From positions 1 to 35,622 of the forward strand of contig SOKC01000123.1 in the NCBI GenBank assembly GCA_004376325.1: 35,622 nucleotides of DNA, in the 5' to 3' direction. A program made the translations under genes and the position numbers. Below the pieces are notes generated by a model that did not search any database, was not told where the DNA came from, and saw only the letters and a program-made list of their open reading frames with translations. The stretch comes from Actinomycetota bacterium. Its GTDB lineage: Bacteria > Actinomycetota > Humimicrobiia > Humimicrobiales > Humimicrobiaceae. Below, in pieces: positions 3-27,056 of the stretch. Numbering within the stretch: position 1 is the stretch's first letter; the number at the start of each line of letters is the position of its first letter.

Positions 3-725
3 ATTATCATTGTCTCCCATGATCTGGGTACTATTTCTGATTTATGCAGTAAGGTTGTATTTTTAAAAGATGGAGAAATAAAAGATATAGGCAAACCTTT
101 GGTTGTTGTTGCAAAATACAGGGCTTATATTGAGGAGTTGGATAAGAAGAGGATCATTGAACAGCAGAGAGCTGAGAGGAAAAAAATATTTAAGACGGTA
201 ATAGAAGGTAATAGAAAAGTAATTGACGGAGAAGAGATAAGCAAGCTATCAAATTTAAGTGTAAGTGGGGAGACTCTTAATAGGTTTGGAAGCGGGGATG
301 CAGAGATTCAAAATATTAAGCTCCTGGATGACAAAGATAGAGAAATAGACTTCTGCAAGTATGGGGATGATGTAAAGATAATATATGAGGTGTTATTTAA
401 AAAAGAAGTTGAAGAACCTATTTTTGGAATGAGAATTACAGATTTTAAAGGTAATATTGTTTATGGTACCAATACCAGATTAAATAATATTAAGACTGGC
501 ACGTTTAAAAAAGGTGACTTGATAAAAGTAATTTTTAACCAGAAGATAAATTTAATCGGAGGAGCATATTCGGTATCTCCTGCTGTTGGTTATAACGATA
601 ATAAAACCTACTGTGACTGGATTAATGATATGCTTACTTTAAATGTAATACATAATAATAAAGCTGAAGGAATATCAGATTTAAATCCTGAAATAATCAT
701 TAAAAAAACTGATTCTAGAAAATAA
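3..725 (+). CDS. wzt: Polysaccharide ABC transporter ATP-binding protein Wzt with C-terminal carbohydrate-binding (Wzt_C) domain; 5'-truncated by window
   Basis: The frame is open from base 3 and reads IIIVSHDLGTISDLCSKVVFLKDGEI (ABC H-loop and last NBD strands). A charged linker follows, then a Wzt_C pattern RFGSGDAEI...PIFG.RI.D..G..VYGTNT...L..GAYSVS. Confidence 0.85.
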   Translation: MIIVSHDLGTISDLCSKVVFLKDGEIKDIGKPLVVVAKYRAYIEELDKKRIIEQQRAERKKIFKTVIEGNRKVIDGEEISKLSNLSVSGETLNRFGSGDAEIQNIKLLDDKDREIDFCKYGDDVKIIYEVLFKKEVEEPIFGMRITDFKGNIVYGTNTRLNNIKTGTFKKGDLIKVIFNQKINLIGGAYSVSPAVGYNDNKTYCDWINDMLTLNVIHNNKAEGISDLNPEIIIKKTDSRK

Positions 726-2847: not shown

Positions 2848-2957
2848 ACTAATAATATTAAGTATTAATGTTTTTAATAATATAAAGGTTTTTTTTAAAA
2901 ATATAAACAAAAAAATAATAATAAGTATTGAAAAAATCGGTTCCAAAACATATTTTT

Positions 2958-11090: not shown

Positions 11091-12059
11091 ATGAATAAAA
11101 AAATAGGAAATATTATAAGAATTGTAGTAAGTCTTTCCCTTCTTTCATTTTTAATTTACAGGAATAAAGATAACTTTGAAAGCATTATAGATAAATTAAA
11201 GGATCTTAATGTAACTTTTTTGGTTATAGCTGTGCTTCTCTATACTTTAGCTTTAGCCTGTATACCATTGAGGTGGGGAATACTGCTTAAAGCTCATAAT
11301 TATTATATTTCAGGTAGTTTCCTGCTGCAGTCTGCATTTATTGGCTTTTTTTATAATAATCTGCTTCCAACGAGTATAGGCGGAGATTTTTATCGTGTAT
11401 ATGATCTTTATAAAAATAAGAATGTACCCATCAATGAAAACATTTCTGCTGTGGTTATGGAAAGAGTCATTGGCAACATAACCGGTATAACTTATTTTAT
11501 ATTTTCTTTTGCTTTTGGTATATTTGGATATCTAACCAGGGGGACTAAAATAGGGCTGGCAATTTCGCTTTTTGTTATTTTATTTTTTTTTACCCTGCTT
11601 TTCAGGCCAAGGCTGTTTAAAATACATGTCCTGCTTGCAAGATATAGAATCTTTTCTAAAATAAGGCCTAAGCTAAAGTCTTTTCACCAAATTCTTGTAA
11701 GTTACAGGTATAAGATTAAACACCTGTCTATAAGTTTTTTTTATAGTTTACTGCTGCAATTAATCTTTATGACCAGTCATTATTTTGTTTCACTGTCCCT
11801 GGGACTTGACCTTAAATTTTATATGTTCATTTTTGCAGTGCCTTTTGCTTCTTTAGCTGCGAGTATTCCTATTTCTATTGGTGGTATTGGAATAAGAGAG
11901 AATGCAATTGTTTTTGCAGTGATGAGTTTTGGTGTGGTGGAAAGTCAGGCAACTCTATTTTCTTTTATTATTTTATTTATTATTTTATTTAATGGACTGC
12001 TTGGAGGGATTGTATATTTATTTAAAAATATTTTTTACAGATCCAGAGGTATAATTTAA
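11091..12059 (+). CDS. LPG-synthase TM flippase-like membrane protein
   Basis: RW..LL, NNLLPTSIGGDFYR, ER and PISIGGIGIRE motifs. Confidence 0.85.
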   Translation: MNKKIGNIIRIVVSLSLLSFLIYRNKDNFESIIDKLKDLNVTFLVIAVLLYTLALACIPLRWGILLKAHNYYISGSFLLQSAFIGFFYNNLLPTSIGGDFYRVYDLYKNKNVPINENISAVVMERVIGNITGITYFIFSFAFGIFGYLTRGTKIGLAISLFVILFFFTLLFRPRLFKIHVLLARYRIFSKIRPKLKSFHQILVSYRYKIKHLSISFFYSLLLQLIFMTSHYFVSLSLGLDLKFYMFIFAVPFASLAASIPISIGGIGIRENAIVFAVMSFGVVESQATLFSFIILFIILFNGLLGGIVYLFKNIFYRSRGII

Positions 12060-12078
12060 TTGTTTGGAAGTTATAACC

Positions 12079-12954
12079 ATGAAGAAAAATAGAGGAAAAA
12101 TTCTTTCTACTATAATATTATTTATTATTATTGTTTTACCTGTAATTACTGCTAATTCCTGCAATTCTTCTATAGAATCAGAAAAACAATTAAAGGAAGA
12201 GGAATCACAATATCCCACATCAAATAATTACCAGGGCCTTAGGACAGAAACAAAGAATATAAATTTAGAGGAATTGGTTGATAACTACCCCAGGATAGTT
12301 TGTTTTGGAGATTCAGTTACCTTTGGATGGAATGTAGATTATAAGGATTCTTATCCTAATATATTGGAAAAACTATTACAGAAGGATTATCCAAAGGTAA
12401 AGGTTATTAACAGTGGTATTGGCGGAGACACAGTAATAGATGCTTATAATCGATTAGAAAGTGATGTTATTAGTTTTGAACCTCATTTAGTTATAATTAA
12501 TCTTGGACTAAATGATGGCTGGATCCAGGAGGTGGTTGAAGATGGAAACGGTGGTGAAGTTGAAGAGCCTTCAGATAATGAAAATAAAGAGATAGGTTTA
12601 AACACCAATGTTGATCTTGAAACTTTTAAGAAATATTATTGCGACATCATAGAGATAATAGAGTTAGCAGATATTAAAATCATTTTAATGGGAATAAACC
12701 CGGTTCTCGGTGATCCTTCTCTTGTAAATGATAATATCGCAGGAGGGCAGATAGAAATTTATAAAATGTATAATGAGCAAGTTAGAGAAATAGGTTTAGA
12801 TAGTAATCTGGTCTATTTAGATTTATGGAGTATCTTTAACCAGGATTATAAAGCTCATGATTATTTGCAGAATGATGGCATTCATCCTGATGAGAATGGG
12901 TTAGAACTAATAGCAAAAAGTATATATGATGCTTTAAAAATATGTGATTTTTAA
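12079..12954 (+). CDS. Exported or membrane-anchored SGNH/GDSL hydrolase-family protein
   Basis: Blocks GDSVT, GIGGD, GLND and DGIHP; N-terminal basic plus hydrophobic signal ending ANSC. The ATG at 12079 is preferred over the TTG at 12064. Confidence 0.85.
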   Translation: MKKNRGKILSTIILFIIIVLPVITANSCNSSIESEKQLKEEESQYPTSNNYQGLRTETKNINLEELVDNYPRIVCFGDSVTFGWNVDYKDSYPNILEKLLQKDYPKVKVINSGIGGDTVIDAYNRLESDVISFEPHLVIINLGLNDGWIQEVVEDGNGGEVEEPSDNENKEIGLNTNVDLETFKKYYCDIIEIIELADIKIILMGINPVLGDPSLVNDNIAGGQIEIYKMYNEQVREIGLDSNLVYLDLWSIFNQDYKAHDYLQNDGIHPDENGLELIAKSIYDALKICDF

Positions 12955-13092: not shown

Positions 13093-14412
13093 ATGAGGGT
13101 TAAATCATTTTTTAGAAGTATTGGTAAAGTAATAGTAACCAAAGAAATTTTTGAGAATAAAAACTTATTAAGACTTCTTTATAAATATTTTCTTGTTGGT
13201 ATGCTTATTAGATTAATTCTTCTGCCATTTTTTTTCCAAAGAGATTTGTTATCAACTTATCAAAGAGCAGCACAGACTGTTTTTGGAGGTAATTTAGGTT
13301 CTGACTTTCAGCAGTTTATAATCAATTCTATTCATTCAATTTATTTATTTATAATAAAATCTATTTTACCAATAGTTGGTGAATATTCTGAAATACTACT
13401 TCAAACTGATACCTGGTCTTCCTGGGTTAATTTTATTAGTAGTGAAAATGTCTTCATAGTTATATCTCTATTTAAGGTACTATACCTTATATTTGATATT
13501 TTATGCATGTTCCTGGTTATGCGGCTTTTATTTGACGATGAACCGGAAAAGAAGCTAAAAGTTTTCAAACTTTGGGTTTTAAATCCTTTTGTGATATTCA
13601 TACTTTATATATTCGCAAGGCATGATATTATAGGGATTTTTTTAACTCTTGTTGCTCTACTTCTGGCAAAGTATAAAAGGAAGTACTGGGCAATTTTTGT
13701 TCTGGCTCTTGCTGTAGCGGCCAGGTTTTTCCCTATGATGATTCTTCCTATTTTAATTTTTTACCTGGCAGATAAGAAGAAAGATTATATTATTTTATTT
13801 TCAGCGGGTATCTCAGGTCTTATTGCAGTTGAGATATTCTCATACTTTTATTTTGGAAGAAGTGTAATATTTTCGCTTATTAATACACAACACTTTAATT
13901 ACATACTTTCTTCTAAATTAGAACTGGTAATTCATGATAGAATATTTATATTTATTGCAGTGTATATAATAATTATTCTAAGCTATTTGCATATCAGGAA
14001 AAAAACATTTGATATATTTTTAAATTATTGTGCCATTATTTACTTGATGTATGTAAGTATATGCTATTTTCATCCTCAATATCTTTTGTGGGTTGTGCCT
14101 TTCTTGATTTTAATTTTTGTTAGAAAAAAAGTACTTTACAGGTATCACTGGGTTCAATTTGCTTTACTTATGGTTATATTAATATATTGGGGAGATCTTG
14201 TAACAAAATTTGTTCTAGCCCCAATAGACCCAAAATACTTTATTTATTTAACAGGTCCTATACCAATTATAAATAGATTTTATAGTCCTTCCAAGTTTGT
14301 AAATATATTTAGAAGTGTTTTTACTGGAGTATCATTATGGATGATATATTTAATATACAAGGAGAATAAAAATATTTCGTTAGAAAACTCTATAAATAAT
14401 AATAAAAAATAG
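13093..14412 (+). CDS. GT-C fold membrane glycosyltransferase (GT87/PIG-M-like)
   Basis: Polytopic; Asp in the first loop (QRDL), K...LIFD, W.LNPF, ARHDI and FHPQYLLW motifs. Confidence 0.65.
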   Translation: MRVKSFFRSIGKVIVTKEIFENKNLLRLLYKYFLVGMLIRLILLPFFFQRDLLSTYQRAAQTVFGGNLGSDFQQFIINSIHSIYLFIIKSILPIVGEYSEILLQTDTWSSWVNFISSENVFIVISLFKVLYLIFDILCMFLVMRLLFDDEPEKKLKVFKLWVLNPFVIFILYIFARHDIIGIFLTLVALLLAKYKRKYWAIFVLALAVAARFFPMMILPILIFYLADKKKDYIILFSAGISGLIAVEIFSYFYFGRSVIFSLINTQHFNYILSSKLELVIHDRIFIFIAVYIIIILSYLHIRKKTFDIFLNYCAIIYLMYVSICYFHPQYLLWVVPFLILIFVRKKVLYRYHWVQFALLMVILIYWGDLVTKFVLAPIDPKYFIYLTGPIPIINRFYSPSKFVNIFRSVFTGVSLWMIYLIYKENKNISLENSINNNKK

Positions 14413-14428: not shown

Positions 14429-15148
14429 ATGAATATAAGTATTAAAGTTTTAAAACTAATCCTATTTAGTCTATTGATATTTCTAATTTTAGTAATTGGT
14501 ACTGGGTGCAACGGAATATTTTTTATTCCAGGGGCTAGTTATGGATATTACATATGGGAGGATAGTGAAGATAATATTCATATTGCCTGGAGCATAGATA
14601 GAAAAGAATCAGTTTTTAGTGGGTGGATTGCTACAGATGGTAAAATTAATGAATATAATTTATTGGGGTGGGAGGAAAATGATAGTATAAAATTATCTGA
14701 AGATTCTAGCAGGATTGAATTTAATGCTTCACTTGACGAAAATGATTATTCGGATGAAATTATTCTTGTTATAGATAATTATAGCTATTTAGAGTTTGAT
14801 CTAAGAATAAATGATGGATATGATCTTTCCAGAATTAATATTGGAGAATTTATAAATAGTCCTAAAGATAATATTTTTAGGATAGAAAAAGGTTACTTTA
14901 ACCAATTAAATAAAAAACCGTGGTATCAGAAACATCCATTATCCGGACTGTTTTATAAGCTTTCAGCCAACATCATTTTCAGCTTAGTCTATATATTCAT
15001 ATTAGGAGTAATAATTATTGAAATACTTAGAGTAACTGTGATAAGAAGAAGTAGCAGATACTGGTGGTATATTGTTATTTCATATTGTGTTTTGATTTTG
15101 ATAGATTCAGGAGTATATTTGTTTTTAACAAAATTAAGTTTTATTTGA
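14429..15148 (+). CDS. Hypothetical membrane protein, possible lipoprotein, with an extracytoplasmic beta-rich domain and two C-terminal TM helices
   Basis: Signal ending VIGTGC, acidic and aromatic-rich middle region, two hydrophobic C-terminal segments; follows the GT-C gene after 16 nt. Confidence 0.6.
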   Translation: MNISIKVLKLILFSLLIFLILVIGTGCNGIFFIPGASYGYYIWEDSEDNIHIAWSIDRKESVFSGWIATDGKINEYNLLGWEENDSIKLSEDSSRIEFNASLDENDYSDEIILVIDNYSYLEFDLRINDGYDLSRINIGEFINSPKDNIFRIEKGYFNQLNKKPWYQKHPLSGLFYKLSANIIFSLVYIFILGVIIIEILRVTVIRRSSRYWWYIVISYCVLILIDSGVYLFLTKLSFI

Positions 15149-15199
15149 ACAAATTCACAAAGATAATATTAACAACATCATCTCTTGCTTGAATTAGCT

Positions 15200-16774
15200 T
15201 TATTGTTGTTGATTATAATTTTTTATTTCTGTTACATCAAAAAAGTTATAAGGCTGCCAGTATGGTGAATAATAACATTTATCTTCCAGTAATTCATAAT
15301 CTCCATCAAAATAAATATTAAAAATTAATCTAAAAGTATTAACAGGAGTTATAGAATCATATAAAAGATTGCTACCATTTTGTGGTAAGTAGTATGCATT
15401 TAATATGAATGTACTTTCTCTAAGCATTTCAGCAGTTGGGTAAAGCCATCCAATATTAGCAGGATCTTCCCTATCGCCATGAGGGTCGCCAAGTGTTAAC
15501 CGTGCACCATGATCTCCCTGAAGTACTATAATTGGAGGGACTTCTGATTTTGATAAAATTTCTTCAATAAGAATTTTAAGCTTACTATTTACAAAAATTA
15601 ACTGATTCAAGTATTTTTCCTTATCCCAATATGCGGCTAATTTATATTCAGCTTCAGGAATAAGTTCACCATTAGCACCAAAGAAAAATGGAGGATGAGG
15701 AGTCATTATGTGTGCGAAAATATATTTTGGTCCCTCTATTTGGTGTACTTTGGCAAGATTTGAGAAAGAATATAGCACCTTTTGTATGCCAGAATCAACA
15801 ATAATATATTTCTCAAATGGTTTTAACATGGTTGTTTGAATTAGTAATATATTAAATTCATTAAACCTATTAACTCGAATGCTTATATCTGCATTTCTGT
15901 TTCTATCTGTGGGACCCCAGCCTGAACTATCAAAGTGGACAAACTGATATCCTTTTGAATGTAAAAATTTCCAAACATTACTATTTGTAATCATCTGGTA
16001 AGGTATTGTCCTATCATCAGATTCTAATCCTACCTTATCACTTAGATAATTAATATATTCCATATTAAGTGATGATGCTAAGGATGAGGTAGTCCATGGA
16101 TAATTACACCGGCTTTTAGAAGCTACATAGAAACCTTTTTCAGTTAAAAAATTGATAAATTCATGATTATCATAATCATAAAATTCTTCCAGAGAACTTT
16201 CCCCAGCGTAACCATCAAGAATTATATAATAGATATCTGGTAATTCAGTCAGGCTTTCGGATATAACAGCTTCTCCATCTTGTAATACTATACTGCTGTC
16301 TTCTTGTATATCTCTTGTTTTAAACTTATAGAATCCAATATTTACCAGAGAAAATAAAACCAGGACAACAGCTATCACGTTTAAAATATTACTAAAGTTA
16401 CGTAAATTTTTTTTTGTCCTTATAGTAAAATAAGTACCTAAAATAAATAATATAAGCCAGACAACCAGTAAGTATCTATGCCCGCCAATTACAAAATTAC
16501 CTATTTTAAAACCCTTTATTTGCTCATAAATACGACCGTAAGAAAAAAATAAAAATAAAAATATAGATACAATGATTCCTGCTTTTCTACTATCTTTTTT
16601 AAGGATTAACCATAACAAACCTACAGCAATGATAGTGAAACCTAATATAATAGCTATTGGTATTAAAATTTCAGATAATGAGACTATTGAAAGTTTTCCA
16701 ATATTATAAGAGTAAAGAAATAAAATAGGAAATATAGCAAATAAAAATGGATGAATAATAAATGTTTTTTTCAT
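15200..16774 (-). CDS. Membrane-anchored alkaline-phosphatase-superfamily (LtaS/sulfatase-like) protein, probable phospho-substituent transferase
   Basis: About 5 N-terminal TMs, then PDIYYIILDGY, NYPWTTSSL (Thr at the nucleophile position, no CxPxR), H..TPHPPF and QGDHG. Confidence 0.75.
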   Translation of the reverse strand: MKKTFIIHPFLFAIFPILFLYSYNIGKLSIVSLSEILIPIAIILGFTIIAVGLLWLILKKDSRKAGIIVSIFLFLFFSYGRIYEQIKGFKIGNFVIGGHRYLLVVWLILFILGTYFTIRTKKNLRNFSNILNVIAVVLVLFSLVNIGFYKFKTRDIQEDSSIVLQDGEAVISESLTELPDIYYIILDGYAGESSLEEFYDYDNHEFINFLTEKGFYVASKSRCNYPWTTSSLASSLNMEYINYLSDKVGLESDDRTIPYQMITNSNVWKFLHSKGYQFVHFDSSGWGPTDRNRNADISIRVNRFNEFNILLIQTTMLKPFEKYIIVDSGIQKVLYSFSNLAKVHQIEGPKYIFAHIMTPHPPFFFGANGELIPEAEYKLAAYWDKEKYLNQLIFVNSKLKILIEEILSKSEVPPIIVLQGDHGARLTLGDPHGDREDPANIGWLYPTAEMLRESTFILNAYYLPQNGSNLLYDSITPVNTFRLIFNIYFDGDYELLEDKCYYSPYWQPYNFFDVTEIKNYNQQQ

Positions 16775-16780
16775 AATATT

Positions 16781-18172
16781 TTAATTCTCTTTCTTCTTCA
16801 TTAAATACATGGTTCTTTTAGAATCCTTAATATTCTCAGCATTTTTTATAGTAAAATATTTTTTAAATTCAATCTCAAAGTTTTGCTGTGTATAATCAGG
16901 AAAAATATCTTCTCTTGTTGACAGGAGTCTTTGAACCTGAGAGTCGTCTTTGGGGACAAATTCAATGATGAGTGATTTACAGATTGAATTGAAGAAATTT
17001 GCGATTTTACCAATTGGAAGGTTATTAGAAATGGCTAAATGATGAATTAAAGCAAGAGCGAAAGCTGTGTCTGTTGGTCCACGTTCAATAAGAGACATTC
17101 TCTCCTGATTTTCCCAGCCAATAGCAGGACTTGGGTTAGTTAAGTCAAGCAGTAATGGGATAATATTAGTTTCACCCTTTTTAACGCTTCTGAGGTAATT
17201 TTTTTCAACTGCAGCAGGATCGATGTCAAAAGAGATTGTATGTATTCTCCTGTTGCTGGCAATACGACTAAACAAACCATCATTTGCACCGAGATCCCAA
17301 ACAGTTTCTGGATTAATCATATCCAAAAATTTAGCTACAATCTCCTTTTTATGATCAATTGCTGCTGGAGAATAGTTAGTATCTTCATAATAATCAGCCC
17401 ATTCAGTTCCTTTAGCTTTCCAATACATTTTACGGGTAGCAGATTCTAAGCTGTCTATAAGACCCATGAAAGACAGGCGGCTTATTTTATGTCCACCTAT
17501 TTTTACTGCTTTGTCAGCATAGTGTTTTTGGCTTTTGGCGTGAAGATGAATATGAGAAAGCAGTGAAGCCTTAAAACTGGTACTTGATGGAAGAAGAGAA
17601 CTTGCCAGATCTAAGGGTATTCCATCTATAAAAATTCTAAATAATTGATTTAGTCGAATATCTTTATAGCTCATTAGTGCCAGGGGTGCAAGAAAATGCT
17701 GACATACCTGTCTGTATGCAATCCAGGATTGTCCTGGATGATATTTCTCGAAAGAAAGTGTATCAATAAAGGTTGGCCTGCCTTTTCTGAATTGTATATT
17801 ATAAGCGCTACAATCTTTTAAAGTCATTTCAAAGTCCATTGCTATTTTCTGGATCTTAAAAGTGGCTAGTGCTGCATCCTTTAGTTGACTGAAGCACCAT
17901 TCATAAGGATATGATATAAATGGTATGGGCTCAGGTTTTATTATTTTATATGCTTTATCAGGTTCTAAACCATCAATATCAATTTCTTTATGAGGAATAA
18001 GCAAATTTGTATCCACAAGAGTCTTATAAAGACCGGATTCCATAAGATGGTCATAATTTTCTTTATATATGGTATTTATCTGACGGTAAATCGAACCATC
18101 TTTATAAAAAAGAAATCCGCACGGATCCCTAAATGAGCTTGGTTCATTAACACTAGTTTTTATCTTGTCCAT
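16781..18172 (-). CDS. NoeA-like protein: N-terminal kinase-like region plus C-terminal class I SAM methyltransferase
   Basis: SFRDP, LKDCSAYNIQF and FIDTLSF, then VWDLGANDGLFS, SFDID and LALIHHL. Start placed at ATG 18172 behind an AGGAG SD (463 aa). Confidence 0.75.
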   Translation of the reverse strand: MDKIKTSVNEPSSFRDPCGFLFYKDGSIYRQINTIYKENYDHLMESGLYKTLVDTNLLIPHKEIDIDGLEPDKAYKIIKPEPIPFISYPYEWCFSQLKDAALATFKIQKIAMDFEMTLKDCSAYNIQFRKGRPTFIDTLSFEKYHPGQSWIAYRQVCQHFLAPLALMSYKDIRLNQLFRIFIDGIPLDLASSLLPSSTSFKASLLSHIHLHAKSQKHYADKAVKIGGHKISRLSFMGLIDSLESATRKMYWKAKGTEWADYYEDTNYSPAAIDHKKEIVAKFLDMINPETVWDLGANDGLFSRIASNRRIHTISFDIDPAAVEKNYLRSVKKGETNIIPLLLDLTNPSPAIGWENQERMSLIERGPTDTAFALALIHHLAISNNLPIGKIANFFNSICKSLIIEFVPKDDSQVQRLLSTREDIFPDYTQQNFEIEFKKYFTIKNAENIKDSKRTMYLMKKKEN

Positions 18173-18389
18173 CTTCTTTACTCCTGGAAGGTAATCTCTT
18201 AAAGAAACCATAAATCCTGCGCCAGAATATCTTAATTCCAAATGCTCCTCCTACTGCAATAGCTATGATTATCTGAATCATATAACTACCGGTTCCGGCA
18301 TCAAGGTATGCGTAAAGCATGTTAGGAGTTATAAGATAAAAAAAGGTTATGAAACCAAGAGCAGTTAAAAAGGTTTTAAAATATTTCAT
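18153..18389 (-). CDS. Small membrane protein with YLDAGTGS (YLDPGTGS-type) motif
   Basis: 78 aa: signal-peptide-like segment ending LYA, then YLDAGTGS, one TM helix and a basic tail. GGAG SD present; overlaps the next gene by 20 nt. Confidence 0.8.
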   Translation of the reverse strand: MKYFKTFLTALGFITFFYLITPNMLYAYLDAGTGSYMIQIIIAIAVGGAFGIKIFWRRIYGFFKRLPSRSKEDGQDKN

Positions 18390-18415
18390 AGAAACTCCAT
18401 TTCTTGAATAAATAA

Positions 18416-18424
18416 ATTATAACA
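18416..18424 (-). promoter_or_regulatory. Extended -10 promoter (TGTTATAAT) for the three-gene operon
   Basis: Reverse complement of attataaca, 26 nt upstream of the ATG at 18389. Confidence 0.5.
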
Positions 18425-18562
18425 AATAAGTGCATGAAAGCCCTTTTACTTAATTTGTTTTATGTATTTTCACTGTATTGTCGCTTTAGTAATATAATAG
18501 TATAAATAATAAAAGACTACTCTAAATAATTAATTTAACAGAGTAGATTTTATTAGGCATAT

Positions 18563-18571
18563 ATTATAGCA
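18563..18571 (-). promoter_or_regulatory. Second extended -10 element (TGCTATAAT)
   Basis: Reverse complement of attatagca, in the same orientation as the element at 18416. Confidence 0.35.
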
Positions 18572-18659
18572 AAAATATTTTTATATTAAATTAGTTTTTT
18601 GCTTAATAAAATTCGTTTTTATATAATAGGTTAAATATTTTTTAAAGTAAATGAAGTAA

Positions 18660-18797
18660 ATGAGGAAGTTTATTCTAAAAAATAAAATAAAAATATTAGC
18701 AACTTTTTCCTTTATAATTCCTTTTATTGTTTATCTACTAACCTTAATATTATGTTATATTGGTTTTCAATTAGCAACCTCAAAAAAATATATTTGA
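18660..18797 (+). pseudogene. Truncated N-terminal relic of a DUF2723 paralog (45-codon ORF)
   Basis: MRKFILKNKIKILATFSFIIPFIVYLLTL matches the start of the 22786-24675 protein at 19 of 26 residues; similarity stops abruptly after YLLTL. Confidence 0.75.
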
Positions 18798-18870
18798 TTT
18801 AGATATTCTATGTGTGAGAAAATGATGGAGATAACCCTATAACCAAAAAATTTAGAAATTAACATTATAA

Positions 18871-21066
18871 ATGATTAATAAATTTGCTAAAACACTTCCA
18901 ATCATAATATTAATAATTATCATTATAATAGGGTTAGCATTAGTTATCATTTCATATTTACCTTTTGAATTAGTTAAAACAGAAATAGACATTTTTACTC
19001 AAGATGGAACTTCTGATTTTTTTACAGCAGGACTCTTATTAAAATCAAGATTTGTTGGAATTGCAATAATCATTATATGTTGGATATTTAGCACTGTTAT
19101 AAAAGAGAGCCAACAATTATTTTCTAGCACCATAAGTTCATGCCCTTCTTTCTTCAAAGAGATTGGACATAACTTTCGGAAAATAATAAAAAAAGAAAAT
19201 AAAACACACCTTTATACTTTTGTCATAATAATGACTGTAGCAATTGCAATAAGATTGTATTTCTTATTACAGCCAATACGTTATATTGAAGCTTCTACTT
19301 TTATATATTATGCCCAAAAGCCTTTATTCATTGGACTTTCAGACTATTCCTATCCTAATAATCACCTTTTCCACACTTTTTTGGTTCATATTGCTTATCT
19401 TTTTTTTGGCAGCTCATTATGGGCAGTGCGTTTACCTGCACTAATTTTTGGAATACTTATAATCCCAATGACCTATATAGTTGCACGTATGTTTTATAAT
19501 AAATACGTAGCACTTCTCTCAACTGGTATCGTAGCTTCATCATCGATACTAATTGAATATTCATCTAATGCTACTGGCTATACTACAATAATTTTCTTTT
19601 CCATAGCAATTACTGCTCTTGCAAAATATCTAATAAACAATAAAAATTCATTTGCATGGTTGCTTTTTGCTATATTGTCTATACTTGGATTTTATACAAA
19701 ACCAATTATGCTATATTCATTTGGAATTGTTATTATTTGGCTTCTAGCATCAATTATATTTAGAGACACAAAATTGACTCATATCTACCTATTTAAAAAT
19801 TTGATTATTTCCTTAATTATCACATTCATTTCAACATTTATATTATATTTACCTGTTCTATTAGGGTCTCTCATAAAGCAAACTACTATTAACAAAAATA
19901 TAAAGTTATCATGGTCAGATTTTATTACAGTATTTCCATCATCAATGCATCAGATTTGGAGTCAATGGAATAGAGATATTCCAATTGTAATAAGTATACT
20001 TCTTATAATAGGTTTTTTTACCTCATTAATTTTTCATAAAAAAATTACAAACTATAAAATTCCAATCATTCTGGCAGCATTTACCTGGCTTACCTTCTTA
20101 CTTTTAATACAAAGAGCTATACTTCCTGAACATGGATGGCTATTTTTATTACCTCTTTTTATAGTGGTATCATCTGCAGGAATAATCTTCCTACTGGGGT
20201 TAGTTTTTTCTAAGATGAGAAATTACAAGTCTTTAGTATTCTCTATTATCGCTCTCATTTTATCAATAGGTCTTGGTTTCACAGTTTTTTTCTCCCAATC
20301 AATCTTTTATTCTAATGAAAAAGAAACACTTAGAGATGCAGAAGAAATTACCATCATGCTAAAATATCATCTTAAATCTGGTGATAGAATTGTGGCCAGT
20401 CCTCCCTCTGACTTACCATTAGTGTATTATTTTAATAAACACAATATTTCAACTGATTACTTATTATATACTGATTTCTATTCAAGCACTCGCGTATTTA
20501 TAATAGAGAATAAGTCAATTAAACAAACAATAAATGATGTCTTAAAATATCATAATTTATCACTTACAGGCTTTAGTAAGCCAGAGCTATTCAGTGAATT
20601 TGCATCTGCTTATATTTACAAAACAAATAACTTAAAATTTGAAAGTAAACTCATCCTTGATTTTAGAGAATATAGTAATGGTGAATTTCAAAATTCAAAA
20701 TTATCTTCGGACAAAAAAGAAATAATAATTGAAGAGGGTGAAAATAAACTTAAAATATGCAAAATACCGATTACAATCAATAGTGGTACTGATTATCTTA
20801 TTAGTTTTAAAATAAAGAAAACTGAAAATTTAGACAATGTTATATATTTTGACCTTTTTGGTGAATATTACGATAGGCCTGAGCAGGAATTTAATTTAAA
20901 ACCTGAGAAAATTAGTGAAGATTATACACAAATAGTTGAAGTTTTAAATTCTAATAAAGTCCCCCCTAATATTGATATTTATTTTAGAATATTTACTTAT
21001 TCTACTGGAGAAGCGATAATCAAAGATCTAGAAATCTATGATATTACAACCTGTACACAACCATAA
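18871..21066 (+). CDS. ArnT/PMT-family (GT-C) membrane glycosyltransferase with a C-terminal extracytoplasmic beta domain
   Basis: AIRL, YSYPNNHLFH, WAVRLPALIFG and YSSNATGY motifs; many TMs; soluble C-terminal region of about 250 aa. Confidence 0.75.
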   Translation: MINKFAKTLPIIILIIIIIIGLALVIISYLPFELVKTEIDIFTQDGTSDFFTAGLLLKSRFVGIAIIIICWIFSTVIKESQQLFSSTISSCPSFFKEIGHNFRKIIKKENKTHLYTFVIIMTVAIAIRLYFLLQPIRYIEASTFIYYAQKPLFIGLSDYSYPNNHLFHTFLVHIAYLFFGSSLWAVRLPALIFGILIIPMTYIVARMFYNKYVALLSTGIVASSSILIEYSSNATGYTTIIFFSIAITALAKYLINNKNSFAWLLFAILSILGFYTKPIMLYSFGIVIIWLLASIIFRDTKLTHIYLFKNLIISLIITFISTFILYLPVLLGSLIKQTTINKNIKLSWSDFITVFPSSMHQIWSQWNRDIPIVISILLIIGFFTSLIFHKKITNYKIPIILAAFTWLTFLLLIQRAILPEHGWLFLLPLFIVVSSAGIIFLLGLVFSKMRNYKSLVFSIIALILSIGLGFTVFFSQSIFYSNEKETLRDAEEITIMLKYHLKSGDRIVASPPSDLPLVYYFNKHNISTDYLLYTDFYSSTRVFIIENKSIKQTINDVLKYHNLSLTGFSKPELFSEFASAYIYKTNNLKFESKLILDFREYSNGEFQNSKLSSDKKEIIIEEGENKLKICKIPITINSGTDYLISFKIKKTENLDNVIYFDLFGEYYDRPEQEFNLKPEKISEDYTQIVEVLNSNKVPPNIDIYFRIFTYSTGEAIIKDLEIYDITTCTQP

Positions 21067-22624
21067 TTTTTGTTCCACCAATTTTTATTGAAAAATATTC
21101 ATCTTCATATGGATATTCATCTTTGTGCCACCTGTAATTACTTATAAAATATTTTGCCTCATCTAAACTATCCCTTTTCACATAAACCAATCTTTTTCTA
21201 TCATCAGAAGGTAAAATAAGAGAATTGTACCATCCACAAGCATTGGCAACATAAATTTTTATAACCTTGTCTTTATCATTTTTTAAAATATATTCTAAAG
21301 CCTGCCTGTATGATAATCCCCAATAGTCTAATTCAAAGCTATTTTTTACCTCCTTCATATTCTTACCAGCTAATATATTAAAATATACATTCTGATGGGG
21401 ATGATACCTTATCATAAATTGAGCTGTATGAATTAAGCTAGATGCTATAATAAGAATAAAAATTATATTTATAACCCTATAACTTAACCCTTTAAATTTT
21501 ATCTTAATAGATTTAGATAAATATATCAGACCTTCCAAAGAAAGTATTACAATAGGAGGGTAGATAAAAAGCATATGTCGCCATGCATCATGTACCACCG
21601 ACTTTAATATAATTATAGATGCCAGTGGCAAAAAGAACCATAGTATAAATATAAGATCATCTCTCCTATTAATATAACACTGTTTCGGATTTTTAAACAA
21701 TAGCTTTATTACAGAAAAGCACCCAATAAGAAATAAAGCAGTATATAATAACGGAGTGGTGACAAGTATCCATATGGGAATATAGTGCCAGGGTACTCTT
21801 AAACTACTTATATAATCTCCTAAGTATAGCATAGATCCAATCCATGGATAACGACTCATCTCTTTAAAGGCTTCTATAAAATGATAAACTGGATTCTCCC
21901 ATAAAGTAGGCCAGAAAAGTATAGTAAAAGAAATCAGCAAAGCCATATATAACAGGAAACTTCCAATAATCTTCTTATTTTTTATCTTAATTGGCTTAAT
22001 TATTAATAAATCAGCAAAAAGAAAAATAACGGTAAACAAAGGAACAATAATTCCTAAAATTCGTATATCAATAAGTAAGGCACAGATTAATGCATGAATA
22101 GCTGCTCTGGGTAAGGTTTTTCTATTTAAATAACTAACCAATGTGTATATACTTATTATAAACATGGACAAAAAAGGAAGATCTTTTGGGTTATAAAATG
22201 AATGAGCAAATATTCGAGGGCTTAAAATCAAAAACAAACTACCTAAAAGACCAATTTTCCAACTGTTAAACCTATATTTACATAATCTATAGAAAAAAAA
22301 TACACTTGTATAAAACAATAGAAAAGTAACTAAATGTCTCATTAAATATATATATCTTGAATCTGTCAGATGTAAAATTTTTTCTATCACAGTCAATAAC
22401 ATTGTAAAAAATGGTCCATGATATTTATTCTTAATATTGAGTAACTCTTGATCTCCTTCCATAACATATCTTATTACTGTCACTCCATAGTCTCTTTGAG
22501 CCTGATCATCCCACGTCATGCCAAAATCTTTAAAGATAAATATACCAATAAGCAGAAAAACCATAAAAAATAAGCATACTAGAATTTTATATTTTTCTTC
22601 AATTAAAATCTTAATTTTAACCAT
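21044..22624 (-). CDS. ArnT/PMT-like (GT-C) membrane glycosyltransferase
   Basis: GMTWDD in the first loop, YHGP, SPRIFAHSFYNPKDLP, PWHY, WRH and DYWG motifs; GAGG SD. Confidence 0.75.
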   Translation of the reverse strand: MVKIKILIEEKYKILVCLFFMVFLLIGIFIFKDFGMTWDDQAQRDYGVTVIRYVMEGDQELLNIKNKYHGPFFTMLLTVIEKILHLTDSRYIYLMRHLVTFLLFYTSVFFFYRLCKYRFNSWKIGLLGSLFLILSPRIFAHSFYNPKDLPFLSMFIISIYTLVSYLNRKTLPRAAIHALICALLIDIRILGIIVPLFTVIFLFADLLIIKPIKIKNKKIIGSFLLYMALLISFTILFWPTLWENPVYHFIEAFKEMSRYPWIGSMLYLGDYISSLRVPWHYIPIWILVTTPLLYTALFLIGCFSVIKLLFKNPKQCYINRRDDLIFILWFFLPLASIIILKSVVHDAWRHMLFIYPPIVILSLEGLIYLSKSIKIKFKGLSYRVINIIFILIIASSLIHTAQFMIRYHPHQNVYFNILAGKNMKEVKNSFELDYWGLSYRQALEYILKNDKDKVIKIYVANACGWYNSLILPSDDRKRLVYVKRDSLDEAKYFISNYRWHKDEYPYEDEYFSIKIGGTKIMVVYRL

Positions 22625-22785: not shown

Positions 22786-24675
22786 CTATCCTTTTATTTC
22801 TATTTCAATATCATCAGAGTTAATATATACGTCATGTGCAGTAATCCTAAACTTCACTTGAGATTTCCCAGGCCTGGTTCCTCTCAATTTTAAAATTAAA
22901 TTAATTTCATCTTCTGCCTCTACCACATATGAACCGCTTACCCACATATACATGCCTCTACTTATGCCAGGATCCTGATTAATATATCCCTCAGGTTCAA
23001 CCTCTACAAGCTCAATATTATCAGGGAGTTCAAGCTCAAGTGAAGAAATCTTTACTCTTTTTTTATTTTTATTTTTTATTATATATTCGACAGTAAATTT
23101 TTCACCAAATTTTTTACTATATTCATCAATTACATATTCAATTTTAATACTTACCTTTGGACTTACTACTTTATATAGTTCCAAAAATTCTTTATACCTG
23201 GGCCAATAATACTGTTTACCTATGCGCTCTGTGTTAAATTGTAATTTAAGAAAATTTTTATTTCCAACAAAATATACAGGAACATCCTTCTCAAGACTTT
23301 CAACCATATCCCCAACTGAATATTTAGGGTTGTTATGATAAATAAACTCTATTTCCTTATCCCCATATTCATATTCGTTCACAAACATACCAACATTGCT
23401 TGAGAATGCAAGTACATACATAATCGAATTTTCTTCCATGTTATCAATAGCCTTGTCCCAGAATTTATAAACATCTCCAGGTTCAGAACGGTCAACTCTA
23501 TTATAATTAGCATATATTAGTGAAAAAGGTTGGAAGACAAAAAATAAAAATATAATTGATAACGAAAAATATTTTAAAATGTTATCTATTTTTAATATTT
23601 TCTTATTAGATAATAACTTTTCAAATACAAATTTAATTGAACCAACTATAAGTAAAAATCCAAATGAAATGTAAATAGACATAATTAGCATTATATTTAG
23701 TACATAATTAGGGACTGCCCAGCCTATGTATTGAGTTATTATAGCAAGGTTAAAGATTATTAATAAAAGTGAGGAAATAGCAAATTTTTTATTTTTCTTA
23801 ATTAAATAGACAAATCCTATGATTGATAAAATTATTAATAGAATGCCATAATTCTTATAAATAATCTCTAAATAGTCCTTAAAAACTTCAAAAGCTGTTG
23901 AAATAGGCCTATCCCCAAAACTGCCACCATGAATTTTTCCCGATGTTGTTCTTCCAGTAACATAGTAAATGAATGTCTTAAAACTAGTTACACTTCCATA
24001 TCCCTGAAGCGATCTTATTGGAAGATAAATATATGATAAAAGTGGTAAAATAAAACATAATAGACTGATTGGGATTACTTTAAGGTTTCTAAAAATTCTT
24101 GGGTTTATAATAATTATATATATAAGAAATGCTGGCATTATAAAAAACGCAATAGGATGATTTGTTAAACTTAAACCCAAACAAAAGAAAAAAAAGTATA
24201 GATGTTTTCTTTCTCTACTTCCATTATATAGCAGTGCTGAGAAAACCACCAAGGCTATAAAAAAACTATTTAACGTATCAAACTCCAACCTATTGGCTAC
24301 GCTCCAAAATGGATACACAAAAGCAAATGTAAAAGAACTTATTAAGCTTATTAACTCATTTTTTACAAGCTTATTTATTGATAAAAATAAAAATAAAATT
24401 GTAAGTGCCCCAAATATTGCTGAAAATAAATTAAGTCTATAAGCTAAATCACCAACTGGTAAATATGTGATTAGTTTGCCAAGTAGCGAAAAAGTTGGAT
24501 ACCCGGTTGGAACAAAGATTTGCATCTTGGGTATTTGAAGTGCATACCAGCTTGTATCCCCTCCAACCAATTTACGCTCTAAGGTTAGTAGATAAATAAT
24601 AAAGGGTATTAAAAATGACAAAAACGCTAATATTAATATACTATATTTTAAAATAAAATTTTTTAATTTTATCAC
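22786..24675 (-). CDS. DUF2723 / TMEM260-like GT-C membrane protein with a C-terminal Ig-like (DUF11-like) domain
   Basis: YLLTL....GGD, PTGYP, YRLNLFSA, FWS, LSLTNH and YLPIRS motifs; GTG start; C-terminal beta-sandwich pattern. Confidence 0.8.
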   Translation of the reverse strand: MIKLKNFILKYSILILAFLSFLIPFIIYLLTLERKLVGGDTSWYALQIPKMQIFVPTGYPTFSLLGKLITYLPVGDLAYRLNLFSAIFGALTILFLFLSINKLVKNELISLISSFTFAFVYPFWSVANRLEFDTLNSFFIALVVFSALLYNGSRERKHLYFFFFCLGLSLTNHPIAFFIMPAFLIYIIIINPRIFRNLKVIPISLLCFILPLLSYIYLPIRSLQGYGSVTSFKTFIYYVTGRTTSGKIHGGSFGDRPISTAFEVFKDYLEIIYKNYGILLIILSIIGFVYLIKKNKKFAISSLLLIIFNLAIITQYIGWAVPNYVLNIMLIMSIYISFGFLLIVGSIKFVFEKLLSNKKILKIDNILKYFSLSIIFLFFVFQPFSLIYANYNRVDRSEPGDVYKFWDKAIDNMEENSIMYVLAFSSNVGMFVNEYEYGDKEIEFIYHNNPKYSVGDMVESLEKDVPVYFVGNKNFLKLQFNTERIGKQYYWPRYKEFLELYKVVSPKVSIKIEYVIDEYSKKFGEKFTVEYIIKNKNKKRVKISSLELELPDNIELVEVEPEGYINQDPGISRGMYMWVSGSYVVEAEDEINLILKLRGTRPGKSQVKFRITAHDVYINSDDIEIEIKG

Positions 24676-27024: not shown

Positions 27025-27056
27025 TTATAGATGATGGTAGTTCAGATAACACAGGT
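27021..27056 (+). pseudogene. 12-codon GT2 relic (LIIDDGSSDNTG)
   Basis: Exact GT2 nucleotide-binding motif IIDDGSxDxT lying between a stop codon and the ATG of an unrelated gene. Confidence 0.6.

Follow-up and report, generated by a model that had tools for sequence, protein, structure and literature searches.

A NoeA/Lani_1194-Family Protein with Kinase-Like and Methyltransferase Domains Lies in a Three-Gene, Probably Envelope-Decorating Module Apart from a Wzm-Wzt Locus

Introduction

The chain terminator WbdD of E. coli O9a (PDB 4azs, 4azw, and 4uw0) carries a kinase fold and a class I methyltransferase in a single chain. The window analyzed here, the entire contig SOKC01000123.1 of an Actinomycetota bacterium (35,622 nucleotides), encodes a protein with both kinds of domain, P0001 (463 aa; 16781..18172, minus strand, stop included). 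The contig also begins inside a Wzt gene, cut by the contig start, whose 3' part encodes a Wzt_C domain (3..725, plus strand; Pfam Wzt_C, E 3.3e-34). A sequence-only reading of the contig had proposed that P0001 is a functional analog of WbdD with swapped domain order and that this Wzt_C could be the reader of its product. The locus raises the question of whether P0001 serves the Wzm-Wzt exporter as a chain terminator or belongs to another system.

Results

P0001 Belongs to the NoeA/Lani_1194 Family

P0001 falls within the NoeA/Lani_1194 family, and the label "NoeA-like" that it had been given is correct. By BLASTP it is 34% identical (158/459, E 4e-83) to NoeA of Sinorhizobium meliloti, residues 12-462 being aligned with NoeA residues 21-476, which is the full length. 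The plasmid records matched by P0001 in tblastn, pSymA included, came mostly from Sinorhizobium (57/65), and the annotated ones call the match noeA. The family has 6292 cluster representatives at E ≤ 0.001 and is spread, according to MAG labels, over many bacterial phyla and some Archaea. P0001 falls in a subgroup that is 70-90% identical to it among the best 119 matches besides the query (411-484 residues long), compared with 34% for the S. meliloti protein. Searches of P0001 against Pfam gave sub-threshold matches only (Methyltransf_23, 13.7 bits for a cut-off of 27), NCBIfam gave nothing significant, and a single-sequence search of the PDB gave 0 matches at E ≤ 10. The ESM Atlas cluster names for P0001 include "Nodulation protein NoeA" (score 0.98), which we took as a lead only.

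The 463-residue form is covered 97-100% by relatives of 460-465 residues, and an AGGAG is found 8-9 nt 5' of its ATG. An alternative TTG start at 18241 would give 23 extra residues. No hydrophobic segment was found in a sequence scan of the 463-aa chain; the explanation of the locus that we favor, and hold with good confidence as a whole, takes P0001 to be a cytoplasmic protein. A whole-protein model had a pLDDT of 96.2 and a pTM of 0.95.

The combination of domains is not new. The part of a 2022 bioinformatic survey that deals with the NoeA/Lani_1194 family (PMC9758233) presents it as an atypical kinase joined to a methyltransferase and draws it beside WbdD. The window copy thus adds no new kind of system, and the kinase-like domain, which the sequence-only reading had called cryptic, had been recognized already. 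WbdD itself is treated in that account with a second kinase-methyltransferase family, Lcin_0519, the two being described as clearly different and related only remotely. S. meliloti NoeA and Lani_1194 of Legionella anisa have the two-domain plan in common with P0001 as well as the conserved Arg, Asp, Asn, and Asp of the first domain.

The N-Terminal Domain Is Kinase-Like and Atypical

The kinase-like domain occupies residues 1-250 (17423..18172, minus strand), as delimited from an AF2 model and structure searches. Within it, residues 118-141 (17750..17821, minus strand) hold a catalytic-loop-like LKD...N and a Mg-loop-like IDT: LKDCSAYNIQF (residues 118-128) is followed, after the six residues RKGRPT, by FIDTLSF (residues 135-141). 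These motifs had been quoted from the sequence together with two others farther on (residues 293-299 and 373-378), and all of them are present. A loose D-x4-N...hhD pattern was found in 2 of the 28 window proteins, and when P0001 was shuffled 2000 times it turned up in 173 of the shuffled sequences. The bare pattern is weak alone, so the weight rests on conservation and on the fold. Conservation was counted in 125 diverse relatives with 40-56% identity. D120 is kept in 123 of them and N125 and D137 in 124 each, and all three are kept in NoeA as well. R30, at the position taken as strand 3, is invariant (125/125), and R15, D16, and G19 of the first strand-loop are invariant in 80/80 sequences.

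The fold was examined with an AF2 model of residues 1-252 alone (pLDDT 92.0, pTM 0.89). Every match listed in three structure searches had a kinase fold: 50/50 in Foldseek against pdb (E 1.3e-4 to 8.2e-4), 50/50 in VIA wide (Z 8.2-9.7, 165-207 residues aligned), and 50/50 in pdb_via (Z 8.8-10.4). The rows were protein kinases or pseudokinases, with alignments spanning residues 1-252, and they bear out the kinase-like fold that had been suggested from the motifs. Since Z-scores of 8.2-10.4 are middling on the tool's own scale, the case for the fold depends on the matches listed sharing one fold and covering the full domain rather than on the height of Z. Protein kinases, pseudokinases, RIO, WaaP, AmiN, and homoserine kinase were near-equal matches, within about 1-2 Z or at similar E-values, and none stood out. 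As no kinase subfamily is closest, the substrate class is not readable from the fold.

In the model, helix 94-113 and strand 116-118 precede the loop, strands 126-129 and 132-135 follow it, and D137 comes next, an order that we take to be that of helix E, strand 6, the catalytic loop, strands 7 and 8, and DFG in PKA. From this order and from the spacing, R30, D120, N125, and D137 would be the equivalents of PKA K72, D166, N171, and D184. No invariant Glu or Asp was found in helix 34-45 of the P0001 alignment, and so no helix-C Glu partner was identified. With the strand-3 Lys replaced by Arg, ATP binding could be unusual. As modeled, the N-terminal half is an atypical protein-kinase-like domain with Arg for Lys and with the putative catalytic Asp/Asn and Mg-binding Asp kept. 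The same picture is drawn in the text of PMC9758233 on the family, with a conserved Arg for PKA K72, equivalents of D166, N171, and D184 kept, and no helix-C Glu found.

The C-Terminal Domain Is a Class I Methyltransferase

Residues 253-463 (16784..17416, minus strand) form a class I SAM-dependent methyltransferase domain by structure and profile matches. The SAM motif I, DLGANDG (residues 293-299; 17276..17296, minus strand), is well conserved in the 125 relatives (D293 in 124, G295 in 122, N297 in 122, and G299 in 121), as is the His pair H377-H378 (17039..17044, minus strand) that ends LALIHH (residues 373-378), with H377 kept in 123 and H378 in 125. When the full model was searched with VIA wide, methyltransferases matched residues 252-463 with Z 15.8-18.4, and in Foldseek the top three matches were WbdD entries. 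The best profile match among solved structures was also the WbdD methyltransferase domain (E 8.4e-4). In that alignment, DLGANDG is placed against DLGCAQG of WbdD and H377-H378 against the WbdD His pair, positions 132-133 of chain 4uw0_A by counting along the printed alignment.

According to PMC3482155, the methyltransferase activity of WbdD needs H132 and H133, the WbdD product gives a new 31P signal at 1.0 ppm, and the His pair is also present in NodS or RebM, which methylate groups other than phosphate. The pair being common to these enzymes, it is no proof of phosphate methylation by P0001. By Z-score, the phosphate or phosphonate methylators MePCE (18.4), BCDIN3D (17.3), DhpI (17.0), and WbdD (16.9) were tied with ordinary methyltransferases.

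The description of P0001 as a WbdD with its domains swapped is therefore fair as architecture, with a kinase-like fold first and a class I methyltransferase second. The methyltransferase domains are detectably similar, sharing the DLGxxxG motif I and the His pair, whereas the order in WbdD is methyltransferase, kinase, and C-terminal coiled coil. P0001 lacks the coiled coil and ends at residue 463 inside the methyltransferase fold. Its kinase-like domain is atypical, unlike that of WbdD, and WbdD was absent among the 50 N-domain matches listed in each structure search.

P0001 Is Encoded in the Middle of a Three-Gene Module

The NoeA-like gene sits between its two partners in a compact module, in which a peptide gene, the NoeA-like gene, and a NoeB-like gene follow one another with a 20-nt overlap and then a 6-nt gap. 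The order is the same in S. meliloti (nodL-orf-noeA-noeB, nod box n5 operon), where a 23-nt overlap is followed by a 6-nt gap. The window copy differs in lacking both a nodL-like acetyltransferase and a nod box context, and it sits in an envelope-glycan cluster of a 1.33-Mb genome with 30% G+C.

The upstream gene (18153..18389, minus strand) encodes a small membrane peptide of 78 aa, P0273, with an N-terminal hydrophobic stretch, AYLDAGTGS, a second hydrophobic helix, and a basic tail; its end forms the overlap with the start of the NoeA-like gene. Its S. meliloti equivalent before noeA has 72 codons with the stop and the motif AYLDPGTGS. A same-strand ORF bearing the motif was found within 500 nt upstream in 61 of the 74 related loci with at least 300 nt of upstream sequence, and Y28, D30, G32, S35, and Q39 are invariant in 62 aligned peptides. 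From the hydrophobic segments and the charge, the motif is predicted to be oriented outward. The neighbors of Lani_1194 named in the text of PMC9758233 are a small hypothetical protein, Lani_1193, and the alkaline-phosphatase-fold, NoeB-like Lani_1195; P0273 probably corresponds to Lani_1193.

The downstream gene (15200..16774, minus strand), which begins 6 nt past the NoeA-like stop, encodes a NoeB-like membrane protein of 524 aa, P0271. Its residues 1-152 are filled by hydrophobic segments and are followed by a predicted alkaline-phosphatase/sulfatase-superfamily domain. P0271 shares 21% identity with S. meliloti NoeB (E 3e-6) and 31% (E 7e-72) with a Singulisphaera "LTA synthase family protein" that adjoins a NoeA homologue. 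Pfam and NCBIfam gave no significant match to P0271 itself, and a profile of its family matched solved sulfatases (6s21, E 5.4e-6). Six residues stand out in 23 sequences: D187 (22), T228 (21), H355 (23), H360 (23), D421 (23), and H422 (19). By analogy, they would include metal ligands (an Asp and an Asp-His pair) and a Ser/Thr nucleophile. P0271 would thus resemble the EptA, MCR-1, and LtaS transferases in having N-terminal hydrophobic helices before an alkaline-phosphatase-superfamily domain, and in their conserved Asp, Thr, two His, and Asp-His pair, although the similarity of P0271 to solved structures is seen through the family profile only and is to sulfatases. In the supplement of PMC9758233, EptA (5FGN, E 3.2e-27) is the best template of the Legionella counterpart Lani_1195, and MCR-1 is also listed. 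The hydrophobic segments and the charge suggest that this EptA/LtaS/sulfatase-type domain probably faces outward.

Beyond the window, the best 80 of at least 590 related loci were examined by tblastn or phmmer and spot checks. A tblastn match to the NoeB-like protein was present in 41 of the 80, and in 35 of these it lies on the same strand and starts no more than 300 nt downstream. At E < 1e-20, a match was present in 36 of the 67 loci whose downstream sequence reaches 1600 nt or more, and a Pfam Sulfatase protein lies directly downstream in six further loci of those 67. In 7 related loci, the NoeB-like gene is replaced by a family of 335-residue proteins for which there was no Pfam family and for which the PDB profile search gave a best E of 0.58.

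Searches of 30 related genomes detected the NoeA-like gene in 4, and the module genes remain together in G001, G012, and G016. Copies 70-74% identical to P0001 occur in MAGs labeled Stahlbacteria, Clostridia, Pseudomonadota, and Ignavibacteria. The G+C content of the three genes (0.29-0.35, compared with 0.297 for the window) resembles that of other soluble-enzyme genes there, and this comparison within the window gave no compositional sign of recent transfer. Scans of 15000-19000 for promoter-like sites (30 for 24.4 expected) and terminator-like sites (2 for 1.6 expected) were uninformative.

The Module Is Independent of the Wzm-Wzt Locus

In the window, the NoeA-like gene and Wzt are 16 kb apart on opposite strands, and 13 ORFs of 100 aa or more separate them. 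A Wzt_C protein within 10 kb of the NoeA-like gene was found in 2 of the 80 related loci, L004 (72% identity) and L010 (64%), where Wzm/Wzt with Wzt_C lie within about 6 kb; a third locus gave a marginal match. Of the 7 related genomes without detected NoeA, 5 had Wzt_C, and G001, G012, and G016 carry the two on different contigs.

Three related genomes (G011, G004, and G016) carry the same Wzm-Wzt-GT locus in the same order with the module absent from it. NoeA was not found in G011 and G004, and in G016 the module is located on another contig. Identities are 74% for Wzt, 68-73% for GT4, 65-67% for GT4/GT2, 69-71% for GT2/GT1, and 53-66% for the next three genes, and no module follows the homologue of 14429-15148. 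Wzt at 3-725 was considered as a member of the module and was rejected, the locus being conserved without the module in relatives. Upstream of Wzm-Wzt in these relatives are genes for a PKD-repeat peptidoglycan hydrolase and for a Wzy_C ligase-like protein; no methyltransferase or kinase that could be a terminator candidate was seen there.

These observations show that the module is independent of the Wzm-Wzt locus and suggest that it does not act there as the chain terminator. The module appears to be an accessory, horizontally mobile surface-decoration cassette inserted in a conserved glycan locus.

Discussion

The most probable explanation, which we hold with good confidence, is that P0001 is a NoeA/Lani_1194-family kinase-like protein and methyltransferase encoded in the middle of a three-gene envelope-decorating module that stands apart from Wzm-Wzt. 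At the inner membrane face, the kinase-like domain would transfer phosphate from ATP to a hydroxyl of a glycan or lipid precursor of the envelope. The same substrate would then be methylated by the methyltransferase domain, possibly on the new phosphate as in WbdD, and the NoeB-like enzyme would act outside the membrane on the same molecule or its product. For P0001 we infer two successive steps on an envelope glycan or lipid, phosphorylation first and methylation second. The rhizobial host-range genes noeA and noeB are counted in the family, and a biochemical answer for any of its members would name a common envelope modification. The window copy adds a clean case of the module inserted in an otherwise conserved glycan locus, evidence that the module does not depend on the Wzm-Wzt exporter, and another confirmation that the small peptide is part of the unit.

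If P0001 acted as WbdD does, it would cap the non-reducing end of a polymer with methyl phosphate, and the Wzt_C at 3-725 would read the cap and license export. Both chemistries would indeed be in one chain, the methyltransferase is closest to WbdD by profile and Foldseek and aligns its His pair with H132/H133, P0001 is the sole SAM-methyltransferase-like protein seen in the 35.6-kb contig, and the closer relatives L004 and L010 have Wzm/Wzt with Wzt_C nearby. Against this stand the rarity of Wzt_C near the gene and its presence in most of the related genomes without detected NoeA or on separate contigs, the syntenic loci that lack the module, the distance and opposite strand of the two genes, and the lack of the coiled-coil extension. 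The idea of the Wzt_C reader fails because the conserved partners of the family are the peptide and the NoeB-like enzyme, two membrane partners that have no WbdD counterpart and are not needed by WbdD systems, and because the gene is not inherited with Wzm-Wzt. We consider this account very improbable; of the proposed functional analogy with WbdD, the two-domain architecture stands and the coupling to Wzt_C does not. It is less difficult, though still unlikely, to suppose that the N-terminal domain is a pseudokinase, which would bind substrate or scaffold acceptor or membrane partners for the methyltransferase without phosphoryl transfer. The Arg in place of the strand-3 Lys in all 125 relatives, the missing helix-C Glu, and the RNase L, IRAK3, and NFR5 pseudokinases among the best structural matches all agree with it, as does the literature search, which found for NoeA/Lani_1194 members the 2022 bioinformatic paper and genome papers only, with no activity shown for any of them. 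Pseudokinases, however, usually lose at least one of the catalytic Asp, the Asn, and the Mg-binding Asp, whereas D120, N125, and D137 are kept almost throughout and even in NoeA at 34% identity, and the invariant R15, D16, and G19 fit a nucleotide-binding loop.

A route to a small metabolite, in which a kinase and an N-methyltransferase make a phospho-alcohol head group such as phosphocholine for attachment to the envelope by other enzymes, is hardly to be expected. Phosphoethanolamine N-methyltransferases do occur among the weak profile matches (4krg, E 0.028; 5wp5, E 0.13) and the fold matches (6wlf, Z 16.0), but they match no better than dozens of unrelated methyltransferases. EptA-like enzymes transfer phospho-alcohol groups, and EptA and MCR-1 are the best templates for Lani_1195; yet choline and aminoglycoside kinases match the kinase-like domain no more closely than protein kinases do, and the module holds no cytidylyltransferase or LicD-like gene. 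The preferred explanation, with P0001 acting on an envelope glycan or lipid, can be extended to a reading in two compartments that we regard as speculative and, for now, rather doubtful. According to it, the module would decorate surface molecules beyond the cytoplasm with methyl phosphate or some other small phospho-group by way of a lipid donor. The cytoplasmic kinase-methyltransferase would phosphorylate a membrane lipid and methylate the phosphate, giving a phosphodiester lipid donor. After flipping, the outward-facing NoeB-like enzyme might pass the methyl-phosphate head group to a glycan or to the Ser/Thr conserved in the YLDPGTGS peptide, much as EptA does with phosphatidylethanolamine. 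If true, this reading would account for the joint inheritance, across many phyla, of a cytoplasmic enzyme with an EptA/LtaS-like enzyme and a very small membrane peptide.

The NoeA homologue and its reading frame

The minus-strand open frame that ends at 16781 can start at 18241 (TTG) or at 18172 (ATG), the latter encoding 463 residues. We took ATG 18172 as the real start because relatives of 460-465 residues cover this form by 97-100%, AGGAG stands 8-9 nt before it, and the upstream small ORF terminates within its first codons. The strings quoted in the sequence-only reading are all found in the translated ORF (16781-18172, minus strand): LKDCSAYNIQF (residues 118-128), separated by six residues from FIDTLSF (residues 135-141), then DLGANDG (residues 293-299) and LALIHH (residues 373-378).

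The label NoeA-like was upheld. The protein is 34% identical to S. meliloti NoeA (158/459, E 4e-83) along the full NoeA length, with the D, N and D of the kinase-like loops identical, and is by this measure a NoeA homologue; a tblastn search of a plasmid collection matched 65 records, 57 from Sinorhizobium, and the annotated ones call the match noeA. The family is very large. A word-indexed search gave at least 8000 relatives (8000 of 8000 scored candidates matched), the best 119 matches, excluding the query itself, being 70-90% identical to the protein, and an exhaustive search gave 6292 cluster representatives at E<=0.001, 1851 of them at E<=1e-30.

The N-terminal kinase-like domain

A cryptic kinase-like domain had been proposed in the N-terminal half from the D-x4-N...hhD spacing of two of the quoted strings. 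Taken alone this pattern is weak evidence: of the 28 window proteins, 2 contain a loose form of it, as do 173 of 2000 shuffled versions of the NoeA-like protein. For the protein itself, nothing above threshold was found in Pfam, NCBIfam or a single-sequence search of PDB chains. The full-length AlphaFold2 model made from a 125-sequence alignment reached a pLDDT of 96.2 and a pTM of 0.95; residues 1-252 were also folded alone (pLDDT 92.0, pTM 0.89, with 79 locus-derived relatives), since the methyltransferase half filled the structure-match lists of the full model. Using residues 1-252, Foldseek against the PDB gave 66 matches at E<=0.001, and all 50 matches listed have the kinase fold (E 1.3e-4 to 8.2e-4), including CMGC, PknG, CK2, RioK1, GAK, WaaP, AmiN and homoserine kinase. 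All 50 matches listed by a Foldseek-independent VIA search of 48,161 chains are protein kinases or pseudokinases (Z 8.2-9.7, with 165-207 aligned residues spread over residues 1-252), and re-alignment of Foldseek's best 998 chains returned kinases only among the matches listed (Z 8.8-10.4); these Z values are middling by the search tool's own caution, while the list is uniform and the whole domain is covered. The predicted N-terminal structure is thus kinase-like, as proposed.

In the model, helix 94-113 and strand 116-118 lead into the D...N loop, after which come strands 126-129 and 132-135 and then D137, an order that we take, from PKA anatomy, to match helix E, strand 6, the catalytic loop, strands 7-8 and DFG. 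On the same anatomy, R30 presumably lies in strand 3. Conservation was scored in an alignment of 125 sequences, the query plus 124 of 150 listed representatives at 40-56% identity, 26 of the 150 rows having been excluded as two-stretch, truncated or extended matches. The D, N and D of the proposed loops are conserved among these homologues (D120 in 123, N125 in 124 and D137 in 124 of 125) and R30 is invariant (125/125). The methyltransferase residues are kept as well: D293 in 124, G295 in 122, H377 in 123 and H378 in all 125. The protein, which has no hydrophobic segment, is cytoplasmic and carries an intact-looking kinase-type catalytic core together with a SAM-binding domain.

This structural reading is right but has been published already. 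The excerpted text of PMC9758233 (Sci Rep 2022) describes the family of Legionella anisa Lani_1194 and NoeA as a novel atypical kinase domain joined to a class I methyltransferase, takes an Arg as the probable counterpart of K72, finds the D166, N171 and D184 equivalents conserved and the ion-pair Glu not found, and draws the domain plan alongside that of WbdD, the E. coli O9a methyltransferase-then-kinase chain terminator. It reports the methyltransferase retained in 94% of about two thousand homologues, and conserved neighbours among 816 neighbourhoods (Lani_1193 in 65%, Lani_1195/NoeB in 38%). A full-text literature search found no other article on Lani_1194, and the excerpts of the articles found on NoeA with NoeB report no biochemical activity for either. 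The window gene adds one more member to this known family, whose biochemistry is unsolved.

Likeness to WbdD

The sequence-only reading had called the protein a functional analogue of WbdD with the domain order reversed. The pairing of a kinase-like and a SAM methyltransferase domain stood, and is already in print (PMC9758233); the functional link to Wzt_C, discussed below, was not supported. The top match of the family profile against all PDB chains is the WbdD methyltransferase domain (E 8.4e-4, 21.7 bits), in which the DLGxxxG of the NoeA-like protein aligns with WbdD and its His pair with the WbdD pair at positions 132-133, counted along the 4uw0_A alignment; the three top Foldseek matches of the full model are also WbdD entries. 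According to the excerpted text of PMC3482155, phosphate methylation by WbdD requires H132, H133, R203 and Y16, and a similar pair of two His or two Tyr is also present in NodS and RebM. Residues 253-463 match class I methyltransferases with Z of 15.8-18.4, the phosphate or phosphonate methylators (MePCE 18.4, BCDIN3D 17.3, DhpI 17.0, WbdD 16.9) being tied with ordinary methyltransferases. Because of the pair shared with NodS and RebM and the tied Z scores, we regard phosphate methylation by the NoeA-like protein as a reasonable guess and no more.

A module with a membrane peptide and a NoeB-like enzyme

The NoeA-like gene lies between two others on the minus strand. An unannotated-looking ORF of 78 residues (18153-18389) overlaps its start by 20 nt; the encoded peptide is hydrophobic at its N-terminus, carries the motif AYLDAGTGS ahead of a second hydrophobic helix, and ends in a basic tail. 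Of the 74 loci with sufficient upstream DNA, 61 have a same-strand ORF bearing the motif no more than 500 nt upstream, and in S. meliloti an unnamed ORF of 72 codons (stop included) with AYLDPGTGS overlaps noeA by 23 nt. Many relatives' peptides have a signal-peptidase-like site (AxA) just before the motif, and some versions begin directly with M-YLDPGSGS (loci L013, L054 and L076); the motif therefore probably lies on the external side of the membrane.

The NoeB-like ORF (15200-16774, minus strand, 524 residues) begins 6 nt past the NoeA-like stop, the same arrangement as in S. meliloti, where noeB begins 6 nt after noeA. Hydrophobic segments fill residues 1-152. The protein has no Pfam match of its own and is 21% identical to S. 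meliloti NoeB (E 3e-6) and 31% identical to a Singulisphaera "LTA synthase family protein" downstream of a NoeA homologue (E 7e-72); Pfam Sulfatase is found in NoeB and several counterparts, and a 23-member family profile matches solved sulfatases (6s21, E 5.4e-6). Candidate metal or nucleophile residues are D187 (22/23), T228 (21/23), H355, H360 and D421 (each 23/23) and H422 (19/23).

Of 600 scanned genome stretches, 590 encoded NoeA relatives, and the best 80 loci were used for counts. tblastn detected a NoeB-like sequence in 41 of the 80, and in 35 of these 41 it lies on the same strand and starts no more than 300 nt downstream. At least 1600 nt of downstream DNA is available in 67 loci; 36 of them have a match at E<1e-20, and at least six more have a Pfam Sulfatase protein directly downstream, a lower bound because only 16 proteins from loci with no match were scanned. 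A Pfam Capsule_synth (KpsC/KpsS-type) gene replaces the NoeB-like gene in three loci (L026:11480-13093, L054:11366-12970, L037:11753-13090). A conserved protein of about 335 residues does so in seven (L021:11502-12500, L030:1490-2482, L036:4066-5079, L049:11471-12475, L053:11402-12421, L063:11438-12457, L074:5473-6480); its members are 44-53% identical to the L021 copy, and neither Pfam nor a PDB profile search gave a match.

The genes for the small membrane peptide, the NoeA-like protein and a membrane-bound enzyme of the alkaline phosphatase superfamily are inherited together and form an accessory cassette within envelope-glycan loci. We propose that the kinase-like domain would use ATP to phosphorylate a lipid, or a glycan linked to a lipid, at a hydroxyl group, that the methyltransferase domain would methylate the same molecule, perhaps on the phosphate, and that the NoeB-like enzyme would act outside the membrane; the peptide would be an anchor, an adaptor or an acceptor. 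On a bolder reading that fits everything seen, the NoeA-like enzyme may make a methyl-phospho-lipid donor which its EptA-like partner would use outside.

The Wzt carbohydrate-binding domain

The Wzt_C domain at 3-725 (plus strand, Pfam E 3.3e-34) had been put forward as reader of the cap. It belongs to the 3' end of a Wzt gene, the first ORF of the window, cut by the contig start, 16 kb from the NoeA-like gene and on the opposite strand. A phmmer search of 4171 stop-to-stop ORFs from the 80 loci found Wzt-like proteins in two (L004 and L010, Wzt_C confirmed by Pfam) and one marginal match. Four of 30 related genomes gave a NoeA match (83% identity in G001, 82% in G012, 72% in G016, weak pieces in G005). 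The pieces in G005, from the same genus (C241:1143-2405, 29-36% identity, one in-frame TGA), may come from a divergent paralogue or from a gene that has been disrupted. Wzt_C is on contigs other than that of NoeA in G001, G012 and G016, which is weak evidence by itself because the assemblies are fragmented. Where NoeA was not found, Wzt_C is present in five of seven tested genomes (G002, G004, G011, G015, G018) and was not found in G006 and G008.

Synteny was decisive against the coupling. The gene order of the window locus is kept in G011, G004 and G016: Wzm precedes Wzt (74% identical to 3-725), which is followed by glycosyltransferases (GT4 68-73%, GT4/GT2 65-67%, GT2/GT1 69-71%) and homologues of 9159-10235 (56-62%), 13093-14412 (62-66%) and 14429-15148 (53-57%). 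After the last of these, where the module starts 52 nt past 15148 in the window, these genomes go directly to an RmlD-like gene, and the peptide, NoeA and NoeB are all missing from the locus. Conservation of the exporter and its reader domain thus does not depend on the presence of the module. No methyltransferase or kinase was found adjoining Wzm-Wzt in the relatives, and a functional link of the NoeA-like protein to Wzt_C is not supported.

The three genes of the module stay together in G001, G012 and G016. In G001, a genome of the same genus, the module (contig C161) adjoins a homologue of window 22786-24675 (93% identical) and lacks the two intervening genes that the window has at 18871-22624. 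MAGs labelled Stahlbacteria, Clostridia, Pseudomonadota and Ignavibacteria (L003-L006) encode NoeA homologues with 70-74% identity to ours; such identities, against 4 of 30 relatives, suggest that this very constrained protein has often been transferred horizontally.

Other genes of the glycan cluster

Between Wzt and the GT4 gene, the window has a HAD-type hydrolase and a UbiA-family prenyltransferase (1262-2946, minus strand), absent there in G011, G004 and G016, where GT4 comes directly after Wzt. Besides the module, this pair is a second insertion here, and presumably resembles a polyprenyl-phosphate sugar donor pair. The 35-kb cluster holds four LPG_synthase_TM paralogues (9159-10235, 11091-12059, 25990-27024, 29149-30192) alongside three GT-C-like membrane proteins (13093-14412, weak GT87; 18871-21066, PMT_2; 22786-24675, TMEM260-like/PMT_2). 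A 622-aa protein (27021-28889, plus strand) has three DUF11 repeats and then a GDSL-type lipase/acylhydrolase domain, and a second GDSL protein is encoded at 12064-12954. A radical SAM/SPASM protein (31985-32986, minus strand) stands amid sugar-nucleotide epimerase, GT2 and hexapeptide-transferase genes, a block conserved in G011 and G016.
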